IMG/VR virus record: IMGVR_UViG_3300045457_000120
Coordinates: 1-24,024 of that record
DNA: 24,024 nucleotides
Source: a virus
Lineage: Duplodnaviria > Caudoviricetes
Reading direction: 5' to 3' (one strand)
This document shows, one piece after another, positions 1 through 8,861 of the stretch (position 1 is the stretch's first letter; each line of letters begins with the position of its first letter). The notes beneath the pieces were generated by a model, which ran no database searches, had not been told where the DNA came from, and saw nothing but the letters and a program-made list of their open reading frames with translations. The translations under genes and the position numbers were made by a program.

Positions 1-42
1 GTGGGCGAGTGGGCCAGCGTGGGCGAGGGGGCCAGCGTGGGC
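1..42 (+). repeat. 18-bp tandem coding repeat
   Basis: gtgggcgagtgggccagc / gtgggcgagggggccagc / gtgggc; encodes the hexapeptide units and is probably cut by the window edge. Confidence 0.8.
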
Positions 43-291
43 AACGGTAAGTTCATGCAGTTCACTTCGGTTGGAAAGAAAGGCCGCACCGTCGTGCTCT
101 ATTGGCACGAACAACAAGTGGTAGTGTCGGTTGGGTGTCAAACCGGGATCCCGTTTGCGGATTTCGTCGACCGAGTCACCCACGCTACGGGCACTACCGA
201 AGACAGCGCCCAGATGTACCGCGACATGATGCCGCTGTTCGAGATGGCGCGGGACTTCGTAGCCAATGCGAGCCGGGACGGTGCGGAATGA
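1..291 (+). CDS. 5'-truncated hexapeptide-repeat (left-handed beta-helix-like) phage protein
   Basis: Opens with VGEWAS-VGEGAS-VGNG repeats followed by a C-terminal 'VVVSVGCQTG..F' segment. The stop overlaps the next start (ATGA, 288-291). The true start probably lies upstream of the window. Confidence 0.6.
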   Translation: MGEWASVGEGASVGNGKFMQFTSVGKKGRTVVLYWHEQQVVVSVGCQTGIPFADFVDRVTHATGTTEDSAQMYRDMMPLFEMARDFVANASRDGAE

Positions 292-542
292 CAGAACTCG
301 AACAACTACGCAAGGTGGCCCGCGAGGCCGAACGATATCTGAACGGCGACGGGTCGCGCGCCGACCTAGCAAAGGCCCTTCGCCAACGGCCACAAGACCG
401 GTGGACGTACGCCAGCCTGAGCAGCGGCCGGTACGGGCGCCGTGTCGGTGAAGAGGGGCAAAACGTGCGCATCGTCGATGAGAACGGCAGCGAGCACTTG
501 GTGCCGAAAGCCAGCCTGCACCTCTCATGGGCGCCGGTATGA
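288..542 (+). CDS. hypothetical protein (84 aa, MTELEQLRK...)
   Basis: 3' part of ORF 102..542. ATG at 288 overlaps the upstream stop (ATGA), and its own stop overlaps the next ATG at 539. Confidence 0.7.
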   Translation: MTELEQLRKVAREAERYLNGDGSRADLAKALRQRPQDRWTYASLSSGRYGRRVGEEGQNVRIVDENGSEHLVPKASLHLSWAPV

Positions 543-879
543 ACCGGGAGGCTATGGTATTATCTGGCGCGGCACGATATGAGCAGGTTCTTGACGCGGC
601 TATCGCGCTGGGCGGCTGGCAGTTCATTAAGCCGAGGGACCGCTGGTCCATCTATCTAATGGCGTCCTACTGCTACTACGAGCTGGACCGTGGGTTGATG
701 CCCGACGCGTTGTTCGACGATCTATGCCGAACGCTACTCGCCGGGGGCCTGGGTGGCGATTGGTGGTTCACGGACCTATGGGACGCCTCGGCGCTCGCTG
801 CAGGAGTGGGTACCACACATTCAGGCGCATTGACCCGACGTTGCAAAGTATCGCGCTGGCTATCCGGCCGGCTGAATGA
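539..879 (+). pseudogene. small protein resembling domain Ia of NAD-dependent DNA ligase; apparent 1-nt frameshift near 803-805 (mutation or sequencing error)
   Basis: YLMASYCYYELDRGLMPDALFDDLCR resembles the LigA Ia motif YY..D...SD..YD.L. The listed frame runs through the terminator to 961. The -1 frame from 805 reads SGYHTFRRIDPTLQSIALAIRPAE and stops at 877-879, immediately before the terminator. Confidence 0.55.
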
Positions 880-906
880 GGGCACCAGTAGGTGCCCTTT
901 TTTTTT
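879..906 (+). terminator. rho-independent terminator
   Basis: AGGGCACC-agta-GGTGCCCT stem-loop with a T9 run at 898-906, between convergent genes. Confidence 0.85.
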
Positions 907-1115
907 CATTCCGCCTCTTCGAGCTTGCGCAGCAGGATGCGGACCTCGAGAACTACCTTGACCGCCGTCAGCACCGCGAGCACAAGACCCGCAACCGCCG
1001 ACAATGTGCCGATATTCTCTGGTAGCCACTTTGACAGGTTAGCGATCCCGATCCCGATTGCGCTGAAGGCGATCGCGAACGCGGTCTTTACCTCGGTTAT
1101 CAAGCTGGGCGTCAT
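906..1115 (-). CDS. small two-TM membrane protein, candidate holin/pinholin (69 aa)
   Basis: Two hydrophobic segments (AFAIAFSAIGIGIANL; IGTLSAVAGLVLAVLTAVKVVL) and a charged C-terminus (RILLRKLEEAE). ATGA overlap with the upstream gene at 1112-1115. Confidence 0.6.
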   Translation of the reverse strand: MTPSLITEVKTAFAIAFSAIGIGIANLSKWLPENIGTLSAVAGLVLAVLTAVKVVLEVRILLRKLEEAE

Positions 1116-1582
1116 GTTCTTGTACCTTCGTTTCCAAAACCCAATACACGGCGCGCAGCCCGATAGCTATCAGCACAAAAATAAATGTGGCCAGCTGTAT
1201 CCATTCGGTCGCGCTCACGCTCTGGATCTCTTGTCATTATGGAAAGGAGGAGTGCGGCATAGAGCCCCGTGCATACCCAATTGTAAACCGTAGGCGGGAA
1301 GTATTGCACCCAGATTATCAGACCTGCCACCTGAACCGGGATGAACCACAGGGCCACGAGTTGAACCAGTCGTACTCGGCGTGGCACCGGGCTAGACACC
1401 CTGGCTGCGTAAACCACGAGGGCGTCAGCGAGTACCGCACCCCCGTAATACCCGAACGCCGAAAGATACGGGTCCGCCACCCAGTGCGCCGCAAACACCA
1501 TGCAAGTAAACAGGGCAAAACGTGACCCTGTCAGCAATGCCGCCGCGCCTGCGGCCACTAGCATGATGTCGTTTATGCTCAT
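1112..1582 (-). CDS. multi-pass membrane protein of unknown function (156 aa, about 4-5 TM)
   Basis: Hydrophobic stretches across residues about 5-116, a GLIIWVQYFPPTVYN segment, and a charged tail. ATGA overlaps at both ends. Confidence 0.75.
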   Translation of the reverse strand: MSINDIMLVAAGAAALLTGSRFALFTCMVFAAHWVADPYLSAFGYYGGAVLADALVVYAARVSSPVPRRVRLVQLVALWFIPVQVAGLIIWVQYFPPTVYNWVCTGLYAALLLSIMTRDPERERDRMDTAGHIYFCADSYRAARRVLGFGNEGTRT

Positions 1583-1698
1583 TTCTTTTCGCGTTGCTTA
1601 CCGTTACCGCCCGCGCTACCCGGCTTTTTGGCCTGGTCGGGCTTGGGCTGAGGTTTGGGGGCCACTGCTTTACGTTGACGACCGTTACCGCCTGCCAT
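1579..1698 (-). CDS. 39-aa basic peptide MAGGNGRQRKAVAPKPQPKPDQAKKPGSAGGNGKQREKK (not in ORF track)
   Basis: Translated by hand. Strong RBS (TAAGGAG-ctcagt-ATG). TGA overlaps the ATG of the membrane-protein gene. Internal duplication of AGGNG[RK]QR. Confidence 0.75.
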   Translation of the reverse strand: MAGGNGRQRKAVAPKPQPKPDQAKKPGSAGGNGKQREKK

Positions 1699-1726
1699 AC
1701 TGAGCTCCTTAGTTGTGGTTATTTGG

Positions 1727-1735
1727 TGTTAAACT
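1727..1735 (+). promoter_or_regulatory. putative extended -10 promoter for the lysis cassette
   Basis: TGtTAAACT (TGn plus -10 hexamer) 33 nt upstream of the endolysin ATG; no clear -35. Confidence 0.35.
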
Positions 1736-1745
1736 GTGCAGGTCA

Positions 1746-1774
1746 ATAGTACAACTGGAGCAGGGCTTATGCAA
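1746..1774 (-). promoter_or_regulatory. putative sigma70 promoter for the peptide/membrane-protein cassette
   Basis: Minus strand TTGCAT-N17-TACTAT. The -35 coincides with the endolysin start codon and the spacer covers its RBS. Confidence 0.5.
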
Positions 1775-2317
1775 AAGAGAACAACTGCCGGAGCGGTGTG
1801 CTCCGTCGGGGCGATTATCGCGTTGGTACTGTCGATGGGCTTGGGCGTCCGCACCAATAAAGATGGACTCGAGCTGATCGGCAACGCCGAAGGGTGCTAC
1901 CGTGATCCGTACCGTTGCCCGGCTGACGTGTGGACAGACGGGCTCGGCAACACCCACGGCGTCAAGCCCGGCGTTCGCAAGACGGACGAGCAGATCGCCA
2001 AAGATTGGGCGGCCAATATCCGCGAGGCTGAACGCTGCATCAATGAAAACTTTCGCGGATCTGAAATGAACGACAACCAATTCAGCGCCATGACGTCGGC
2101 AGCGTTCAACCTGGGGTGCCGAGGGGTGATGACCTACGTCAACGGCCAGGGCAAACGGGTCCCGACCACTATCTGGCGGCACGCCGCTGCGGCACGCTGG
2201 CCGGAAATGTGTGATCGGTTAACCGACTTTACCCGCGCCGGCGGAAGGGTACTGCCAGGACTGGTGACTCGCGGCGTCAAGCAGCGGGCGCTGTGCTTCA
2301 AGCCGGTGGAGGGCTAA
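1769..2317 (+). CDS. SAR endolysin (GH24 lysozyme, phage P1 Lyz type), 182 aa
   Basis: GGAG RBS before ATG 1769. N-terminal Gly/Ala-rich SAR helix containing Cys11. GLELIGNAEGC..DPY.CPA.VWT.G.GNTHG gives the triad E41-x8-C50-x5-T56, as in P1 Lyz. Confidence 0.93.
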   Translation: MQKRTTAGAVCSVGAIIALVLSMGLGVRTNKDGLELIGNAEGCYRDPYRCPADVWTDGLGNTHGVKPGVRKTDEQIAKDWAANIREAERCINENFRGSEMNDNQFSAMTSAAFNLGCRGVMTYVNGQGKRVPTTIWRHAAAARWPEMCDRLTDFTRAGGRVLPGLVTRGVKQRALCFKPVEG

Positions 2318-2319
2318 CC

Positions 2320-2442
2320 ATGGAGGCCGTCTTGTACCTACTCGCCTGCATCGTTGCGGCGATAATTTTCATGGTGTTTATCTGCCTAGCGGGAGGCAGA
2401 CCACGCACTAAACCAACCGCACCACCGGAGCCAAAGCCATGA
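2320..2442 (+). CDS. 40-aa single-TM protein MEAVLYLLACIVAAIIFMVFICLAGGRPRTKPTAPPEPKP (not in ORF track)
   Basis: Translated by hand. GGAGG RBS at the end of the endolysin gene, exactly fills the gap, and the stop overlaps the next ATG (ATGA, 2439-2442). Confidence 0.75.
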   Translation: MEAVLYLLACIVAAIIFMVFICLAGGRPRTKPTAPPEPKP

Positions 2443-2651
2443 TCCGACTCATTGATAACTGGCGCGAGGCACACCGCTTTTCGTCCATGCGGTTGCATGC
2501 GTTCGCTGGGGCTTGCGACATAGTGCTCGCAGGCGTAGTCATAGTCGACCAACGGTTCCCATTCGACCCGCTGTGGTACGCGCTGGCACGCCTGGCGCTG
2601 ACCGCCGCAGGTATGGGCGCTCGTCTGATTGCCAAGCAGGTGAAGCCATGA
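2439..2651 (+). CDS. putative holin (70 aa)
   Basis: M.RLIDNWR.A.RFSSM N-terminus typical of small phage holin-like proteins, two hydrophobic segments, basic C-terminus. Lies between endolysin and spanins with ATGA overlaps. Confidence 0.65.
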   Translation: MIRLIDNWREAHRFSSMRLHAFAGACDIVLAGVVIVDQRFPFDPLWYALARLALTAAGMGARLIAKQVKP

Positions 2652-3040
2652 TCGCCTTGCCGTGGTGGGCCAAGACGGCCGTTCTGACGGCAGCCATGGC
2701 CGGGTCGTACTGGTGGGGCGCGTCGAACGCGGAAGCCGAGTACGCACTGGCGGCGGCTCAGCGCGACGTCGAGGCGTACGGCGCCCAAGTGTCTACGCAG
2801 GCCCGCATTGACGCAGTTGACGCCGCTCTGGCCGAAACACAGGCGGTCATCCTCCAGGGGGTGGCAGTTGAAACTATCAAATACAAGGTGGTGTATCGTG
2901 ACCGGATCCAGAACCCTGCTCTTGCTCGCTGTATTGCTGATAGCGGGCTGCTCGACCTCTACCGATCGGCCTACGGGTTTACCGTCAGTGGCGACGGAAC
3001 TGCTGACACCCAGGGGGGCGCTGCTCGACCCGGGCAGTGA
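2648..3040 (+). CDS. Rz: inner-membrane spanin (Rz-like), 130 aa
   Basis: ATG 2648 in an ATGA overlap. N-terminal TM (WWAKTAVLTAAMAGSYWWG), Ala/Gln-rich helical region and a C-terminal Cys; overlaps a lipoprotein gene. Confidence 0.8.
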   Translation: MIALPWWAKTAVLTAAMAGSYWWGASNAEAEYALAAAQRDVEAYGAQVSTQARIDAVDAALAETQAVILQGVAVETIKYKVVYRDRIQNPALARCIADSGLLDLYRSAYGFTVSGDGTADTQGGAARPGQ

Positions 3041-3149
3041 TCCAGTAATGCTCGGCGAGGCCGTAGAGTGGAACGCCGCCCAGTGTCTGTCTGACCGGGC
3101 GGCGCTGGAGAGGTGGCAAAAATGGTACAGAAAAGCAAAGGGCCCGTGA
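2898..3149 (+). CDS. Rz1: outer-membrane lipoprotein spanin (Rz1-like), overlapped architecture
   Basis: Signal peptide and lipobox (SRTLLLLAVLLIAG-C) in the +1 frame inside Rz, Pro-rich mature part, extends past the Rz stop. GTG 2898 preferred as start; TTG 2868 is possible. Confidence 0.8.
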   Translation: MTGSRTLLLLAVLLIAGCSTSTDRPTGLPSVATELLTPRGALLDPGSDPVMLGEAVEWNAAQCLSDRAALERWQKWYRKAKGP

Positions 3150-3162
3150 GGGCCCTTTTTTT
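3131..3162. terminator. bidirectional rho-independent terminator
   Basis: AAAAGC-AAAGGGCCC-gtga-GGGCCCTTT-TTTT between the convergent Rz1 and tailspike genes. Confidence 0.85.
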
Positions 3163-4768
3163 ATGCCAAAACCGTAACGATCCCGCTATTTACCCCAACC
3201 AAATCAAAACCTCCAGATCCTATTGATATCGCTTTCGCCCCAGCGCCTGACGCAGTACCTTGAGCTAAATTGGTTAATCCAACATCGCGCGTCAGATCCC
3301 CACCAATGAACGTTACGTTCAAGGTGCCGACGTCGCCGTTGTCTATCTCTATGAATTTTGTTCCTGCCGTTTTCGGGTTTATCTGCCCAATGGCAATATA
3401 ATTCTGCACAACTAACGAGGATTTATACGACACCGGGCTCCCGTTGGTAACGCTAATCTGCGTCCCCTTTACCAATTCCGTTGCACAAGCGTCCATCGTT
3501 ATTGAGTATGGATTGACGAATTTAAACGCAATTGCGTTTGCTTCCCCTGCCAGTGGCTCGCACTCTTCCACCGTGCAGCAGGTCATAGATGTGTACTGCT
3601 GGCCGATCATTTCAAAACCAATTTGATAACCACGCACCCCTGCCACGCGCATATCCAGCGACGTGCCAGATGTTTTGTAACCGACAGGTGCCGCTGTAAA
3701 CGCCTGTAGACTAAAGCCGGTGAAGCCCTTGCCGGGAAAGGTGTTGCCAAAAATGCGCTCAAGAGTGGTCAGGTAGCATGTCCATCCTTGGAAGGCGTTG
3801 TAGCCGCCCTCTACAACCACATCGCTAATCAGCCCACCAGCAAGGCTGCCAAGGAACATCCCGACATCTGGCCGAGTTGTTGCATAGTTCGCCTCGGTTA
3901 GCCCCTCGCGCCGGAACATGCATTTTGACAGGTGGGGGCGGACAGTGTGTGTTTCGCCATCCACCATACTCCCGCCCGCAATGGACTTCTTAGGCACAAA
4001 TCCTACAAGGGCATCCATGGTGAACGCGGTGACCCCGTTGGCTTTATAAGGGAAGGCGTTGTTAGTGGTCTTGTAGAAAACCGTTTGCTCGGCGGATCCG
4101 TGTCCAGTAATGCCCATGTTGTTGTACACAGGAACCATCTCTGACGTGTAGATGTTACCAACGGGTGCATGCAAAAGAACTTTTCGAGCCTTTGCAAAGT
4201 TAGTAGCTAAAGTGATCGCGGGTGCATTATCGAAAGAGGCTAAACCCTCGATCATCCCCCAGAACCGCATATCGTATTCAGTAAAATTGATGCGCTGCCA
4301 GTCCAAAGTCAGGTGTGGCGAATTGATAAACACGCCACCGTCATCGGTATTAGCCTGAGTATTGTCGTATGCGATGAAGGTCCCACCCCCAAAGTAACCT
4401 GACAACCCTACGGGAGTGGGGTACGCGGCGCGAACAAAGACGACCTCCCCCACGCCTTTCGGCATGCGGGTTCGCAAAGCCGCAATGTCGTCGACCACCT
4501 GCTCCCTCTCGGCGCGTCCGATGATGTACGTCTTCATCGCGTCCCAGACCTGGCAGGCCCCGACGGCGTCCGGCACTCCGGATGGGGTTACCGCCATCTC
4601 GGATAAGATGGATTGCTGCAGGCCGAACCAATCATTTACCCATGCCGCCCGCAACGGGGTGCCTGTTCCGTCGCCTGGCGCGGACACGTCGCGGGCCTTG
4701 CCGTACGGGTACTCAGGGCTCACCCCCGCAGTTTTACCGGGGAACGCCACGTCCGGATTAATAGCCAT
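3161..4768 (-). CDS. tail fibre/tailspike, probable beta-helical receptor-binding protein (535 aa)
   Basis: Last gene after the baseplate. N-terminal attachment region (YPYG.A.....GDGTGTP..A.WVND..G), then IAALR...GGGTF...DDGG...WQR and a pectate-lyase-3-like start (FWG...DNAPAI), followed by beta-rich sequence. GAGGA RBS. Confidence 0.8.
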   Translation of the reverse strand: MAINPDVAFPGKTAGVSPEYPYGKARDVSAPGDGTGTPLRAAWVNDWFGLQQSILSEMAVTPSGVPDAVGACQVWDAMKTYIIGRAEREQVVDDIAALRTRMPKGVGEVVFVRAAYPTPVGLSGYFGGGTFIAYDNTQANTDDGGVFINSPHLTLDWQRINFTEYDMRFWGMIEGLASFDNAPAITLATNFAKARKVLLHAPVGNIYTSEMVPVYNNMGITGHGSAEQTVFYKTTNNAFPYKANGVTAFTMDALVGFVPKKSIAGGSMVDGETHTVRPHLSKCMFRREGLTEANYATTRPDVGMFLGSLAGGLISDVVVEGGYNAFQGWTCYLTTLERIFGNTFPGKGFTGFSLQAFTAAPVGYKTSGTSLDMRVAGVRGYQIGFEMIGQQYTSMTCCTVEECEPLAGEANAIAFKFVNPYSITMDACATELVKGTQISVTNGSPVSYKSSLVVQNYIAIGQINPKTAGTKFIEIDNGDVGTLNVTFIGGDLTRDVGLTNLAQGTASGAGAKAISIGSGGFDLVGVNSGIVTVLA

Positions 4769-4777
4769 GTGAAATCC

Positions 4778-5590
4778 TCAACTGTAGTTTACCATTACGC
4801 CGATCCACTGGTGCAGCGGGCCTATCTTGAGGCACAGCGCCTCGAACTCATCTCTGCGGGGCGCAGGTACCGTGGCTTGCTGCCCAAATACCTGGCCGCC
4901 GACATACCAAAAAAACGGCCACTTAGCCGGGTCTGTTGGCACAGTATACCTCCGCAAAAGAATTTCGTATTCAAGGAAGTTGCCGCATTCCGCGTCAGCT
5001 TCGCCACATTCAGCGAACGGCTCCCCACAGCGCACAATAGGATCAGGAGATGAATACTCCACTTTATTAACCAGCGGATACCCTATGGGGACGATAGCGT
5101 TACCGCACTCCGCAAATGGTTCTCCGCACTCCGCAAATGGTTCTCCACAGTCGACCACTGGGTAGCTCGGCAGGTTGTCACGGCGTAGATATAGAAGCGG
5201 GTTGCGTGGCACCGCGCATGCGTGCGATCCGATAGCGGGTTCGGTGCCAGGCGCCCACCACTCGTGAACGTATACGTCGAACCCCGCCCCGCGCAAGGTG
5301 TCTTGCAGGTACCGAGGCGACTGGCCGCCGACGGCTCTCCATGCCGCATCAAGGCGAGACCGGCGGCCGGCATCAGCGGTCAGTGACGGCGGCAGCCCAA
5401 ACTGATCCTCCCACTTGTCCAGCGCCCCCGTCGTAGCGGGCATCAGGTCTTCATAGTCAGTGTCGAGCGCCCCCTTTACATCACCGCCCCATGCCGACAC
5501 GCCTTTCAGTAACTTTGTCAGCTGCTTATTGACGGCTGTCGTGCGCCATGCCCTGCCATTCGGGAGAAGGTGCTGCAGAGTCTTAAACAT
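4778..5590 (-). CDS. baseplate wedge protein (Mu gp48/YmfQ-like) with Cys heptad repeats
   Basis: LQHLLPNGRAW, LDKWEDQFGLP and GGQSPRYLQ motifs; located between baseplate J and the fibre. Confidence 0.7.
   Translation of the reverse strand: MFKTLQHLLPNGRAWRTTAVNKQLTKLLKGVSAWGGDVKGALDTDYEDLMPATTGALDKWEDQFGLPPSLTADAGRRSRLDAAWRAVGGQSPRYLQDTLRGAGFDVYVHEWWAPGTEPAIGSHACAVPRNPLLYLRRDNLPSYPVVDCGEPFAECGEPFAECGNAIVPIGYPLVNKVEYSSPDPIVRCGEPFAECGEADAECGNFLEYEILLRRYTVPTDPAKWPFFWYVGGQVFGQQATVPAPRRDEFEALCLKIGPLHQWIGVMVNYS
5103..5146. repeat. perfect 21-bp tandem repeat
   Basis: ccgcactccgcaaatggttct x2 (5103-5123, 5124-5144), encoding CGEPFAE units. A degenerate second cluster lies at about 4981-5030. Confidence 0.9.
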
Positions 5591-6773
5591 AGGTCAGTGC
5601 CCCAAGCTTGGCTTTTTCCCCGACGCCCAGGATATAGACCGATGCGTCCACACCGTTCCGTTTTACCTGCAGCGTAGTGAACACCCCCCCGGCCGCCCCG
5701 ACCACCTGATCGACTACCCCGCCAACGCCGGTGGCGGTTATGCGGTCAGACCTGGCCCCCACCGACAGGCCGACGATGTACGGCTCGCGAGAAAGGAAGT
5801 AGTCGATAAGCGCTGCCTCGATCTGGTCCCGAACCGTTGCCAAATCGCCCGGCACCGACAAGCCGAGCACCCGAACATCGAACGCCAAACGGGTGATCGG
5901 GAACCCATTCACAAGCGCCCCAATGGGCCTGCGTGAGGCAAGACCGTTCTGGTCCAGCTCAATTAGGTCAAGCGCGGCCTGGATCTGCGCGTTGGTTGGT
6001 ATGCCATCCTGTTCTGTCGCTGACTCGACATAAATGTCCACTTGGCCGGGGCACTCGCTGGTGTAGGGGTAGACAGTGAGCACCCCGGCGGCCTCTTCGC
6101 CCCACTGTTCATAGTCCGCGTATGCTCCGCCCTGTGGCCGCTTCTGAAAGCGGTCGAGGATCCGCTGACGGTACACCTCAACGTCCTCAGCGTCGGCCCC
6201 TGTGACAACTTGGCCTGTTACCGTCGCCACACGGCCTATGTTCGGTAGGGGGTTGACAAATTGCAGCTGCGCCCCGTTCGGGAGGTTGCCGATCGTCCCC
6301 GCCCCGTCTCCGCCTTGCTGATCGCCTGACGCCCGCACTACCGCCGACACCGTTGGCGCGTTCAGCGCGATGTCACCTGTCACCAGATACGTCACGCCGG
6401 TCGATGGGTAGATCAGCTGTGACCCGGTTCGCAGGAAACCGGTTTGGTTCGTCACGGACACGTTGATGGTCAGCTCCGCCTGACTGGCGGGCTTCGGCTC
6501 GTCTATCCCGACCAGGGCGCCCCATTCGCGCAGCGGGCGGACGATGCGTCCGTTGATCGTCGTCTCCGCGTCACTGGCGGTGCGCACGAACAGTTGCAAC
6601 CAGATGAACCCCGCGTACTTGTAGAGCACGACGATAAGCCCCGCCAGCGCTTGCGCCATGACGCGGATAAACGACTTGGGGAAAAACGGGACGGTCTGGG
6701 CCAGCTGAGCGCTGACCTGGGCGATGATGTTATCGCTAACCTGTTTGGTGGTGGGGGTCTGCGGGGCGCTCAT
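5583..6773 (-). CDS. baseplate J / Mu gp47-like wedge protein (396 aa)
   Basis: GADAEDVEVYRQRILDRFQKRPQGGAYADYEQW and G.IGNL motifs. Start moved to ATG 6773 (ATGA overlap, AGGAG RBS). Confidence 0.9.
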   Translation of the reverse strand: MSAPQTPTTKQVSDNIIAQVSAQLAQTVPFFPKSFIRVMAQALAGLIVVLYKYAGFIWLQLFVRTASDAETTINGRIVRPLREWGALVGIDEPKPASQAELTINVSVTNQTGFLRTGSQLIYPSTGVTYLVTGDIALNAPTVSAVVRASGDQQGGDGAGTIGNLPNGAQLQFVNPLPNIGRVATVTGQVVTGADAEDVEVYRQRILDRFQKRPQGGAYADYEQWGEEAAGVLTVYPYTSECPGQVDIYVESATEQDGIPTNAQIQAALDLIELDQNGLASRRPIGALVNGFPITRLAFDVRVLGLSVPGDLATVRDQIEAALIDYFLSREPYIVGLSVGARSDRITATGVGGVVDQVVGAAGGVFTTLQVKRNGVDASVYILGVGEKAKLGALTYV

Positions 6774-7144
6774 GCCGTCCACTCCTGGGTGAATTGGTAC
6801 GCGGTACCGTTGATGTCGACCACCAGTGTAACGCGGTTCAGCGCGGGGATGAATGCCGAAGTGGCAACCGTCCAGCCGTAGGGGGCGGCGGTCATCCATG
6901 CCAAGTCGGTCGACATCGCGTCGGACAGCCGCAGCAGGTTGCCGCTGGTGGGCGGGAGCTCGTCAAGCAATTGCTGCGTTCGGCTCGTCATGCTCTCGTC
7001 TGCCCACCACGTAGCCCCCTCCTGGTTGCCGCCAAACAGGGAGATGTACGCAGCGCTGCCAGGCAGGTCGGTGAGGGTAACCACTCCATTAACTGCCTCG
7101 ACTTCGCCGTCATCAGGCGTCTGGAAAAGTAGAACATCGCTCAT
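6770..7144 (-). CDS. baseplate protein (Mu gp46-like)
   Basis: AYISLFGGN...WWAD and DLAWM motifs; lies between spike and J. Confidence 0.7.
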   Translation of the reverse strand: MSDVLLFQTPDDGEVEAVNGVVTLTDLPGSAAYISLFGGNQEGATWWADESMTSRTQQLLDELPPTSGNLLRLSDAMSTDLAWMTAAPYGWTVATSAFIPALNRVTLVVDINGTAYQFTQEWTA

Positions 7145-7638
7145 ATCGTAGGTGACTCCGTCTCTTGTTCGGCGTTGTTGTCGCTGTCATTGCCTTGGGC
7201 GTGCGTGTGCCCACGCAAACTGACCCCGTCGGACGTAACGACATCCCCATCGGTAGTCATGCGGGCGCCATTCCCAACGACATCGCCACCAGCATCCAAC
7301 TCGAAATAGCCTGCAGCATTCGACAGCCTTGCTGACCCGTCCGACTTAAGCCACAGCTCGACTACCTGCGACCCATCCGCGGTGCGCGCATAGATCCGAC
7401 GCTCACCGGGTCCGGCTGTCTGGGCGTTTAGTGGGTCGACATACCCTACTGCCGCGAACCCGCCGGATTGTGGCATCTCGACCAGCACGGCGTAGTCCCC
7501 CGGCAGCGGATGGGCGTCGTCACCGGGCTGCTGGGCGTGCGGAGCCTGCCGGATCGCACCCCCGCCTGGGTCGCACTTTGTGTCACTCTTACCGCCCACG
7601 CCGCGGATAAACTCGAGAACCTTTGCTATTCGTCCCAC
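7141..7638 (-). CDS. baseplate central spike (Mu gp45/P2 gpV-like)
   Basis: PLPGD, GPGERRIYAR and C-terminal VSLRGHTH (HxH iron-binding apex); follows the hub gene. Confidence 0.8.
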   Translation of the reverse strand: MGRIAKVLEFIRGVGGKSDTKCDPGGGAIRQAPHAQQPGDDAHPLPGDYAVLVEMPQSGGFAAVGYVDPLNAQTAGPGERRIYARTADGSQVVELWLKSDGSARLSNAAGYFELDAGGDVVGNGARMTTDGDVVTSDGVSLRGHTHAQGNDSDNNAEQETESPTI

Positions 7639-8861
7639 GGCATTTGCTCCGGCAGCTTACCGGACAGGGTGCCCGGCAGGATCACAGTCAGGGTGGCCGT
7701 CTCCGAGCTGTCGCTTTTGTTGAGGCGAGCAGACCTGATCAGCATTGTAAACGCCGAGTATACCATGGCCCCCGGGGCGAATAGAGAGATGTAGCTACCG
7801 GGCCACCACAGGTCCCCATTCTGATCGCGCCACGTGGCCACCTCGAGCTCGTAGGATACCGCGTTCGCCGCCATGCGCCCTGCCTTGGTCTGTACCGTCT
7901 GCTCGATCGTGTTGTCCACAGTGTCGCCAGCTTCGAACACATAGGGGCGCAGGCTGTCGGCCAAGCGTGCGTTCTTTACGGTGAACTGGGTCCCCGCCAA
8001 GCCGATGACCACAGGCGCGATCCCGGTCACGTGGCTGTAATAGTCCTGGGGACTGAACTGCGGAGTCACCGAGATAAGCGGCGACAAACCCTCGGCCAAC
8101 TTGGCAACCACCTGTCTGGCGTTGCCCTCACGGGTGAACCGCAAGCGGCCATCCGGAGAGGCCCCAATCACAAAATTCCGCTGGGCCGCCAGGTCAGACA
8201 GAAAGTCCAGGGCCATTGTTCCCGGTGATAGCGCCGCACGTTCGAACACAGGGCCTGGGTCTGCAGTGAACTCGACGGACAGGCCGAACAAACCCGCTAC
8301 CGCCGCTGCGATCGTCTGCAGCGTTGCGCCAGACCATTCTAGGGGGTATGCCGACGCGGGGGCGGTACAGTCCCCCATAACGCCTGCCGTGGAGTAACAC
8401 GCCACCGACACCGTGCGCCCATCTGGACCTGTTTTCGGCGTTGGCGCGACCATCGTTCCGGTGAACAGCCTAGCGCCGCCAACGTCGACAGAAACCGGCG
8501 AGTAGGAGAAGGGCTTAAACAGCGACCGCTGGTCCGCCATATTCGGCTCGAATGGGGCTTCAAACTCTACGGCTGATTGCGTATCGAGCGAGAGGGTGAT
8601 CGACACTGACGTCCAGAACCGGAAGCGGGTGCCCCCTACCGTCAGCGCGACCTCATTCGGCGAGCTGGCCTTGCGGTTCACGTCCGCGTCTACAAAATAG
8701 TCCGGGTCGTCCGGCACGACCAGGCTTGACCCTGCGGCCAGCGGTTCATCGGCCCCGGGGTTCCCTTTCCGGAGGAGGGACGCTTTCTGGTCATCCCCGT
8801 ATACCTTGCGGGCGATCTGCTCGTAGGTGTCCCCCGGCTGGACGCGGTAACTACTCGCCAT
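7626..8861 (-). CDS. baseplate hub (Mu gp44/P-like) with N-terminal LysM domain (411 aa)
   Basis: YRVQPGDTYEQIARKVYG...NP LysM, then hub-like FRFWTSVSIT and TWRDQNGDLWWPG. ATG 8861 has a GAGAGG RBS. Confidence 0.85.
   Translation of the reverse strand: MASSYRVQPGDTYEQIARKVYGDDQKASLLRKGNPGADEPLAAGSSLVVPDDPDYFVDADVNRKASSPNEVALTVGGTRFRFWTSVSITLSLDTQSAVEFEAPFEPNMADQRSLFKPFSYSPVSVDVGGARLFTGTMVAPTPKTGPDGRTVSVACYSTAGVMGDCTAPASAYPLEWSGATLQTIAAAVAGLFGLSVEFTADPGPVFERAALSPGTMALDFLSDLAAQRNFVIGASPDGRLRFTREGNARQVVAKLAEGLSPLISVTPQFSPQDYYSHVTGIAPVVIGLAGTQFTVKNARLADSLRPYVFEAGDTVDNTIEQTVQTKAGRMAANAVSYELEVATWRDQNGDLWWPGSYISLFAPGAMVYSAFTMLIRSARLNKSDSSETATLTVILPGTLSGKLPEQMPWDE

Follow-up and report, generated by a model that had tools for sequence, protein, structure and literature searches.

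The locus described here lies in a 24,024-nucleotide stretch of viral DNA (hereafter the window), and the source record, IMG/VR IMGVR_UViG_3300045457_000120, comprises this same 24-kb stretch. The window represents part of a myophage near Aeromonas phage AeroV_348, which matches 80% of bases 1-8000 with 81% identity, and its structural genes run on the minus strand as far as the tail spike. As read from the sequence, the locus is a unit of four minus-strand genes encoding a short basic peptide, a predicted five-helix membrane protein, a hidden overlapping frame that we call ORF4, and a holin-like protein, gene 3. The lysis genes of the window (1769-3149, plus strand) diverge from this unit. 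The features are:

878-899, no strand assigned: terminator-like hairpin directly past gene 3, called on the plus strand only (terminator scan)
906-1115, minus: gene 3, 69 aa, phrog_13707, with a weakly hydrophobic first segment, a strong second transmembrane (TM) segment and a charged tail (PHROG and alignment)
1039-1218, minus: ORF4, 59 aa, GTG start, one TM helix followed by a basic/charged tail (ORF and profile analysis)
1112-1582, minus: 156-aa membrane protein, phrog_15451, helices at residues 3-18, 21-39, 42-62, 68-92 and 98-116 (PHROG and structure model)
1579-1698, minus: 39-aa Lys/Arg/Pro-rich peptide with two G-G-x-G-x-x-R copies and no signal peptide (ORF and motif analysis)
1591-1611, minus: motif copy 2, GGNGKQR (sequence)
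1672-1692, minus: motif copy 1, GGNGRQR, directly after Met-Ala (sequence)
1705-1710, minus: AAGGAG ribosome-binding site of the peptide gene (sequence)
1727-1753, no strand assigned: two face-to-face -10-like hexamers between the peptide and endolysin genes, a candidate shared divergent promoter (read by eye)
1769-2317, plus: GH24 endolysin, P1 lyz-like, with an N-terminal hydrophobic (SAR-like) segment (Pfam/PHROG matches)
2439-2651, plus: holin candidate of the lysis cassette, phrog_1356/DUF7940 (Pfam/PHROG matches)
2648-3149, plus: Rz/Rz1-like spanin pair (PHROG matches)

The original prediction had described three of these genes, joined by ATGA overlaps, and both the reading frames (39, 156 and 69 aa) and the overlaps (1579-1582 and 1112-1115) are present in the sequence, as is the strong ribosome-binding site claimed for the peptide gene; the fourth gene was overlooked. 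The 39-aa frame is already annotated in the close relative AeroV_348 and does hold the repeat ascribed to it, in the form of the two motif copies. The proposed head-to-head lysis cassette with a holin candidate of its own is likewise present, complete with GH24 endolysin and two spanins. The unit had also been credited with its own promoter, for which a sigma-70 scan of positions 1-4200 returned no promoter-like site. Read by eye, the 70-base gap between the peptide and endolysin genes contains a minus-strand -10-like hexamer, TACTAT, at 1746-1751 and, 10 bases away, a plus-strand hexamer at 1730-1735 (extended -10-like, 1727-1735). Comparable pairs, 6-10 bases apart and again read by eye, occur in the divergent loci of 4_4512, KpV52, PEAT2, KsaM-C1 and L198, and it is plausible that the unit and the endolysin share a promoter region.

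At its other end the unit meets the early genes, which converge on it at the hairpin. One frame converging there (539-874, plus) encodes a stand-alone 112-aa protein that matches the NAD+-binding N-terminal domain of DNA ligase (PF22745, E 1e-6). Within the lysis cassette, a 40-aa frame between endolysin and holin (2320-2442, plus) has one hydrophobic segment and a Pro-rich tail, and finds no match in Pfam or PHROG; it is absent from AeroV_348, since the lysozyme and holin genes there overlap directly.

The 156-aa protein, for which four to five TM segments had been claimed, falls at the upper end of that range: an AlphaFold2 model built with 100 sequences has five helices, a mean pLDDT of 87 and a low-confidence tail. 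Across these 100 sequences the mean count of Lys plus Arg is 0.17 at the N-terminus, then 1.6, 0.15, 2.1 and 0.14 in the successive loops and 2.7 in the tail, a pattern from which an N-out/C-in five-helix bundle is predicted. The two loops free of Lys and Arg are acidic and aromatic and hold Y45 (96%), Y46, G87 (100%), W91, Y94, P97 and Y100 (100%), so that the invariant Tyr, Trp, Gly and Pro residues are predicted to face the periplasm, and the cytoplasmic loops and C-terminal tail are variable. Such an aromatic, acidic surface would suit a Lys/Arg-rich peptide, although interfacial Tyr and Trp can be conserved for structural reasons. None of the 100 sequences' Cys, His, Ser, Asp or Glu positions is invariant (best Cys 55%, His 59%, Ser 48%, Asp 73%, Glu 14%), which makes an AgrB-like enzyme unlikely, and we favor the peptide as a ligand of the membrane protein over the peptide as its substrate.

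Both phrog_15451 and phrog_13707 are annotated as families of unknown function. The 156-aa protein has no Pfam match, and the 100 members together gave just nine weak hits, each from a single member; none matched AgrB or CAAX/CPBP models at E 0.01, and one matched an exosortase model (6e-5). Structure searches against the PDB returned generic helical bundles only, both with Foldseek (best E 0.74) and with VIA (best Z 9.3, rmsd 3.6, 118 residues aligned). BFVD returned unnamed phage proteins only, four of them at E<=0.001, plus weaker matches, among them K4JPZ4 of phiCbK, A0A385EER3 of CcrBL9 and several unnamed proteins (TM 0.5-0.6, E>0.07); these suggest a wider superfamily of five-helix phage proteins. 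A search for fused or longer forms of the family found none, which is weak evidence.

Read in the +1 frame, ORF4 overlaps the tail end of the 156-aa gene and the beginning of gene 3. A comparable +1-frame ORF is present in 38 of the 39 loci placed by script, 28 of them above the hydrophobicity cut-off, and the +2 frame of the same loci yields gene 3 or nothing; locus L045 has no ORF4. Over the last 35 codons of the membrane gene the +1 frame is open in 29 of 45 loci and the +2 frame in 1 of 45, with the +1 frame in mid-gene open in 2 of 44. A profile built from 36 other loci scores the ORF4 of the window at 33 bits, a value that none of 289 shuffles reached (best 5.0), whereas the frame-0 tail scores 2.2 bits, a value reached by 62 of 300 shuffles; shuffling is a lenient control for a TM segment, and it is the contrast between frames that holds. 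ORF4 is listed in none of the annotated records examined. We regard ORF4 as a candidate transducer or antiholin; its match to holin phrog_920 is only weak (E 0.0024). The string DVGG in the tail of the membrane protein, at one point considered a further motif copy, is in fact the ribosome-binding site and start of ORF4.

In an alignment of 21 members, gene 3 begins with a segment rich in Gly, Ala and Thr, continues through a W-x-P turn into a strong TM helix and ends in a charged tail. This is the build of a class II holin or pinholin of the HP1 or 21 S type, with two hydrophobic segments and a charged C-terminal tail within 60-100 aa, and the two-segment, holin-like protein originally predicted thus stands as to its architecture. 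Its assignment as a holin is weaker. Holin phrog_4237 is matched by 7 of the 21 members (best E 3e-4, weak), no curated Pfam holin cut-off is reached and no Pfam holin appears among the 25 families listed. Profile alignment with hhalign gave a probability of 71% (E 3.8e-5) against the HP1 holin and only 18% against essD. HP1 reportedly has a pinholin/SAR endolysin system; gene 3, though similar to its holin by profile, forms its own family, phrog_13707. Look-alikes of gene 3 in the Atlas include a "Holin family protein" cluster at 0.90, and the annotation of KsaM-C1 names the homologue a holin. Taken together, these matches point weakly to a class II holin or pinholin-like protein. Almost every locus long enough downstream has gene 3 after the membrane gene, one exception being L030/L185, which are one contig. 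Moreover, the unit faces a SAR-like endolysin and spanins in KpV52, PEAT2, KsaM-C1, L198, G003 and G004, and in these six gene 3 and ORF4 are the sole holin candidates within the stretch examined.

The association between the peptide and the membrane protein was assessed from the membrane side, by scanning IMG/VR with a membrane-protein pattern so that the peptide was not selected on. The family is encoded in 35 of the 51 loci recovered, 34 of them with upstream DNA, and a short basic ORF carrying one to three copies of GGxGxxR lies directly upstream of the membrane gene in 32 of these 34 viral loci. The remaining two have a near-variant motif (L166) and a motif ORF behind an inserted gene (L170). 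Fourteen of the 35 family loci belong to one near-identical lineage. For comparison, a broader motif set is present in 471 of 20,000 random windows. Starting instead from the motif, the family follows 26 of 48 short-ORF hits as opposed to 0 of 88 long-ORF hits. The expectation that homologues of the membrane protein would have a motif peptide upstream and a small holin-like gene downstream is therefore nearly always borne out. The link extends to phage 4_4512, which has another type of genome and a membrane protein only 28% identical, where an unannotated 19-aa peptide with one copy lies upstream; 4_L372X and phiA005 have two-copy peptides.

Across loci all six Arg and all four Gly codons are in use in the motif, and the constraint thus acts on the peptide. 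The third position is variable (N, R, Q, K, H, S or Y), and peptides carry one to three copies, in L198 three in tandem. In many of the free peptides Asp-Ala/Val or Met-Ala precedes the motif, and the distance from motif to stop ranges from 2 to 30 residues, being 2-6 in many loci. The peptides are basic and hydrophilic, with the exception of L158, which has a possible hydrophobic extension. The 39-aa peptide has no Pfam match, and its relatives show a weak link to phrog_36947.

Several loci depart from the common arrangement. In phiPLPE (L145:3350-3470) two motif copies lie in different frames around an A-run. Its five-helix gene is annotated from 3624 but begins at 3471, and L178, a close relative, has one single 39-aa peptide ORF. 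Phages of the 4_L372X type (L011:1535-1969, L015:690-1334, L061:639-1451) have differing inserted genes beside the peptide gene, in L011 a 127-aa gene between the peptide and membrane genes. The complete genome G002 (L156) has the membrane genes and no match to the GGxG DNA pattern; upstream of its diverged five-helix gene (L156:2770-2890) lies a basic peptide with another repeat, PMKGR, present twice, which is possibly a second code.

A scan for the related string AGNGKQR gave 62 loci, and the membrane gene was present in 0 of them. Most of its short-ORF hits are the tail of an unrelated 94-aa two-TM protein, and the family is encoded in 0 of 3 incomplete control genomes. This 92-94-aa protein, found upstream of a cell-wall-enzyme-like gene (L087:2282-2557, L090, L091, L098, L106, L107, L124, L125, L128, L129, L132, L133 and L141), ends in AGNGKQR right after its second helix; it has no Pfam match, and G005 (82% complete) does not contain the five-helix family, which suggests chance or an unrelated use of the motif.

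Loci without an adjacent peptide gene proved informative about where the motif resides. Of 21 loci that had been found earlier from the membrane side and that include upstream DNA, three have diverged peptides (KpV52, PEAT2, L156) and three have no adjacent peptide (CP-T1, KsaM-C1, L154). L154 has its peptide gene behind the endolysin and holin genes, on the opposite strand. In CP-T1 and KsaM-C1 the motif instead lies about 40 residues before the end of the DUF2213 head protease/scaffold, a placement that the original prediction had not foreseen. Two further genomes picked through the scaffold motif alone, G003 and G004, both encode the membrane family and both lack a peptide gene. In all four (KsaM-C1, CP-T1, G003, G004) the motif occupies one aligned position in the DUF2213 tail, where the scaffold alignment shows it as an insertion after an acidic run and between Asp residues; the alignment shows no motif in the scaffolds of KpV52, phiPLPE and G009, all of which have a peptide gene. 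PEAT2 carries the same variant, AGGANVKPR, in scaffold and free peptide. In a backwards control genomes held 0-3 motif matches each, so a single match per genome is within chance, and KsaM-C1, G003 and G004 are one lineage; the case for the scaffold placement accordingly depends on about three lineages together with the position they share. In the scaffold halves Ala is the residue most common after Asp (5-8 of 18-23). The head protease of the window itself is of the S49 type and carries no motif. Two loci whose scaffold has the motif (L150:3455-3500; L226, minus strand, 1465-1506) have a 13-codon ORF upstream of the five-helix gene, itself motif-less. On this placement we conclude that the motif works in trans and is tied to the head. 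Its presence in the scaffold gene of some phages that have no peptide gene makes a virion-borne signal likely, through which an infected cell would detect a further infection and change its time of bursting.

By the searches made here, the unit is widespread and carried by many unrelated phages of Gram-negative bacteria. A single-sequence search of a 50%-identity library with the 156-aa protein gave 125 hits, about 85 of them short family members; we set aside some 40 long, multi-stretch hits (308-2,926 aa) as repeat artefacts, having inspected one of them, P0040. A scan based on P0133 found no locus. Cultured phages of Klebsiella, Pectobacterium, Erwinia, Aeromonas, Vibrio and Iodobacter have the unit, and one family member matches 72 records, of which 64 are Klebsiella phages. 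In GTDB scans, 0 of 4 and 1 of 6 loci (L220) encode it and, under these narrow patterns, it therefore looks rare in bacterial genomes. The L220 contig is binned in a Nitrospinota MAG, and directly upstream of its peptide gene a GTA_holin_3TM domain is fused to a CHAP domain in one 302-aa protein (L220:1764-2669). VP16T and VP16C are said to differ in their plaques; the unit is intact in both, so it does not obviously explain that difference.

An endolysin lies within 2.5 kb of the unit in 9 of 18 representative loci, with none in 8 and 1 not assignable; by our own estimate, a 5-kb stretch in a genome of 45 kb would contain one by chance in about 1 case in 9. The neighboring endolysins are of six unrelated kinds (GH24, GH108, M15 peptidase, amidase_3, CHAP and Chi-like), which points to a repeated association with lysis genes. 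Where no endolysin is close, the unit follows the tail genes, precedes the terminase or lies within the head gene block; the last is the case in 4_L372X, phiA005 and L195, and in the first two of these the endolysin is about 18-20 kb away. The window and many of its relatives have, besides gene 3, a separate holin candidate (DUF7940 or GTA_holin_3TM).

These observations enabled us to propose a model of a late phage unit in which a virion-borne, or lysis-freed, peptide is sensed by the membrane receptor and acts through ORF4 on gene 3, tuning lysis much as T4 lysis inhibition does without being homologous to it. We rank it first among the readings considered, at slightly below even odds. In this model, the motif peptide would be loaded into the head, either as a fragment of the scaffold or as a basic peptide co-packaged with DNA. 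A short core would be freed by removal of Met, or through cleavage by the head protease at an Asp frequently found before the motif, and would ride in the virion or escape at lysis. The peptide has no export signal, and the periplasm could thus be reached only through virion delivery or lysis, both being inferred routes. The five-helix protein would then recognize the core on its periplasmic side, ORF4, acting as a transducer or an antiholin, would relay this to gene 3, and gene 3, as a pinholin, would change its activity; the most likely outcome would be delayed lysis when the cell is infected again.

The lack of an export signal would also suit an assembly-coupled timer within one cell, in which the motif is freed in the cytoplasm at prohead maturation (or the peptide builds up late) and acts from the cytoplasmic side to license holin triggering. 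Such a timer would draw further support from the scaffold-tail motif lying between Asp residues and from the divergent region common to unit and endolysin. Nonetheless it is unlikely, as the conserved residues are on the predicted periplasmic side while the cytoplasmic loops and tail vary, and as the free peptide gene, which is more common than the scaffold form, could signal head maturation only if the head protease cuts the peptide.

A periplasmic conserved surface, a virion link and lineage-specific motif variants are also compatible with kin-specific superinfection exclusion, whereby the membrane proteins would recognize the motif carried in virions of related phages and stop or abort the entry of their DNA, the holin look of gene 3 being incidental or serving local depolarization. 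The frequent distance of the unit from the endolysin fits this too. Exclusion genes are, as a rule, early or lysogenic, and the unit sits at the end of late gene blocks and repeatedly within lysis cassettes, or head-to-head with them, across six kinds of endolysin, so that we find exclusion rather unlikely.

A role outside lysis, such as counter-defense or an aid to morphogenesis (a prohead tether or shield acting via the motif, or a peptide decoy of a host sensor of head proteins), would account for the head-block placement in 4_L372X, phiA005 and L195 and for a motif within the scaffold. It would leave unexplained the holin-like gene 3 after the membrane gene in nearly every locus with room, as well as its standing as the only holin candidate beside several SAR-like endolysins within the stretches examined, and we judge it improbable.

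Two readings can be dismissed briefly. AgrB is a membrane peptidase with an invariant catalytic Cys-His pair, and although the order of a small peptide gene and a multi-TM gene, together with the multi-copy cores, recalls AgrB/AgrD, a membrane protein that processes and exports the peptide is very improbable for a family with no invariant catalytic residue, no conserved Cys/His dyad and no AgrB match in Pfam. It is similarly hard to credit the peptide ORF as a cis-acting leader of the membrane genes (an arrest peptide or translational coupler), despite the ATGA coupling and the motif copy 2-6 residues before the stop in many loci, because the motif-to-stop distance varies so widely and the peptide gene can be inverted (L154), displaced (L011/L170) or replaced by a scaffold copy many kb away.

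Returning to the proposed tuning of lysis by a sensed peptide, its closest functional parallel is T4 lysis inhibition, which involves the holin T, with its periplasmic C-terminal domain, and the antiholins RI and RIII; RI is Sec-targeted and periplasmic, and the suggested signal, in the available part of that account, is DNA (PMC11413866). The proposed likeness is that a superinfecting virion delivers something to the periplasm and the holin is restrained via an antiholin. The systems nevertheless differ: there is no homology, none of the four unit proteins having a T-, RI- or RIII-type match in PHROG or Pfam, and the unit comprises a motif in a gene-encoded peptide together with the five-helix protein and the single-helix ORF4, none of its four proteins having a periplasmic domain by length and topology. 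BSPM4 ORF52 (PMC11657625) and CSP1_021 (PMC13577005) are described as small single-TM antiholins that bind and restrain a holin. ORF4, at 59 aa with one N-terminal TM helix, shares this build, a likeness drawn by description only; unlike the unit, neither is associated with a peptide motif, five-helix partner or overlapping gene in the available portions of those papers. Phage N4 has a SAR endolysin with two holin-like proteins and, according to the accessible part of the report, a trigger that is unknown (10.1101/2025.11.12.688109). The window likewise combines a SAR-like endolysin with two holin-like proteins, but gene 3 forms a separate family, and that part mentions no peptide for N4.

The Arbitrium system relies on a secreted pro-peptide with a signal sequence, read by a receptor that is a cytoplasmic TPR/HTH transcription factor. 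As in the unit, a short phage peptide with lineage-specific variants is encoded beside a (putative) receptor gene; in contrast, the peptide of the unit has no export signal and is paired with a membrane protein, and the named phages infect Gram-negative hosts. AimP/AimR governs lysis versus lysogeny in temperate phages of Gram-positive hosts, the setting for which phage peptide signaling is described in the available part of the source (PMC13389391). A broader proposal, which we hold only tentatively, is of peptide-coded communication among Gram-negative phages: a short, basic, lineage-specific code peptide in the virion, free and multi-copy or cut from the scaffold by the head protease, would be read in the periplasm of already infected cells by the five-helix receptor, and lysis timing would be set through the hidden antiholin and the pinholin.

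As far as searched, the unit is undescribed; neither a description nor an experimental study of a member was found in the open-access literature, and subscription papers or the supplements of genome papers could mention one. The analysis brings to light a gene, ORF4, missing from every annotation examined, and a putative signal motif that has shifted between a stand-alone gene and a structural one. Phages recorded with endolysin and spanins only also gain a holin candidate. In the parts of the literature available, the lysis-inhibition signal proposed so far is periplasmic DNA in T4 (PMC11413866), with the N4 trigger open (10.1101/2025.11.12.688109); the unit offers a candidate signal that is gene-encoded, seven residues long and synthesisable, together with a candidate receptor and a candidate effector. 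Its presence in cultured phages makes the model directly testable. If lysis is indeed tuned at high phage density, the burst size, production and dosing of Jedunavirus-type phages would be affected.
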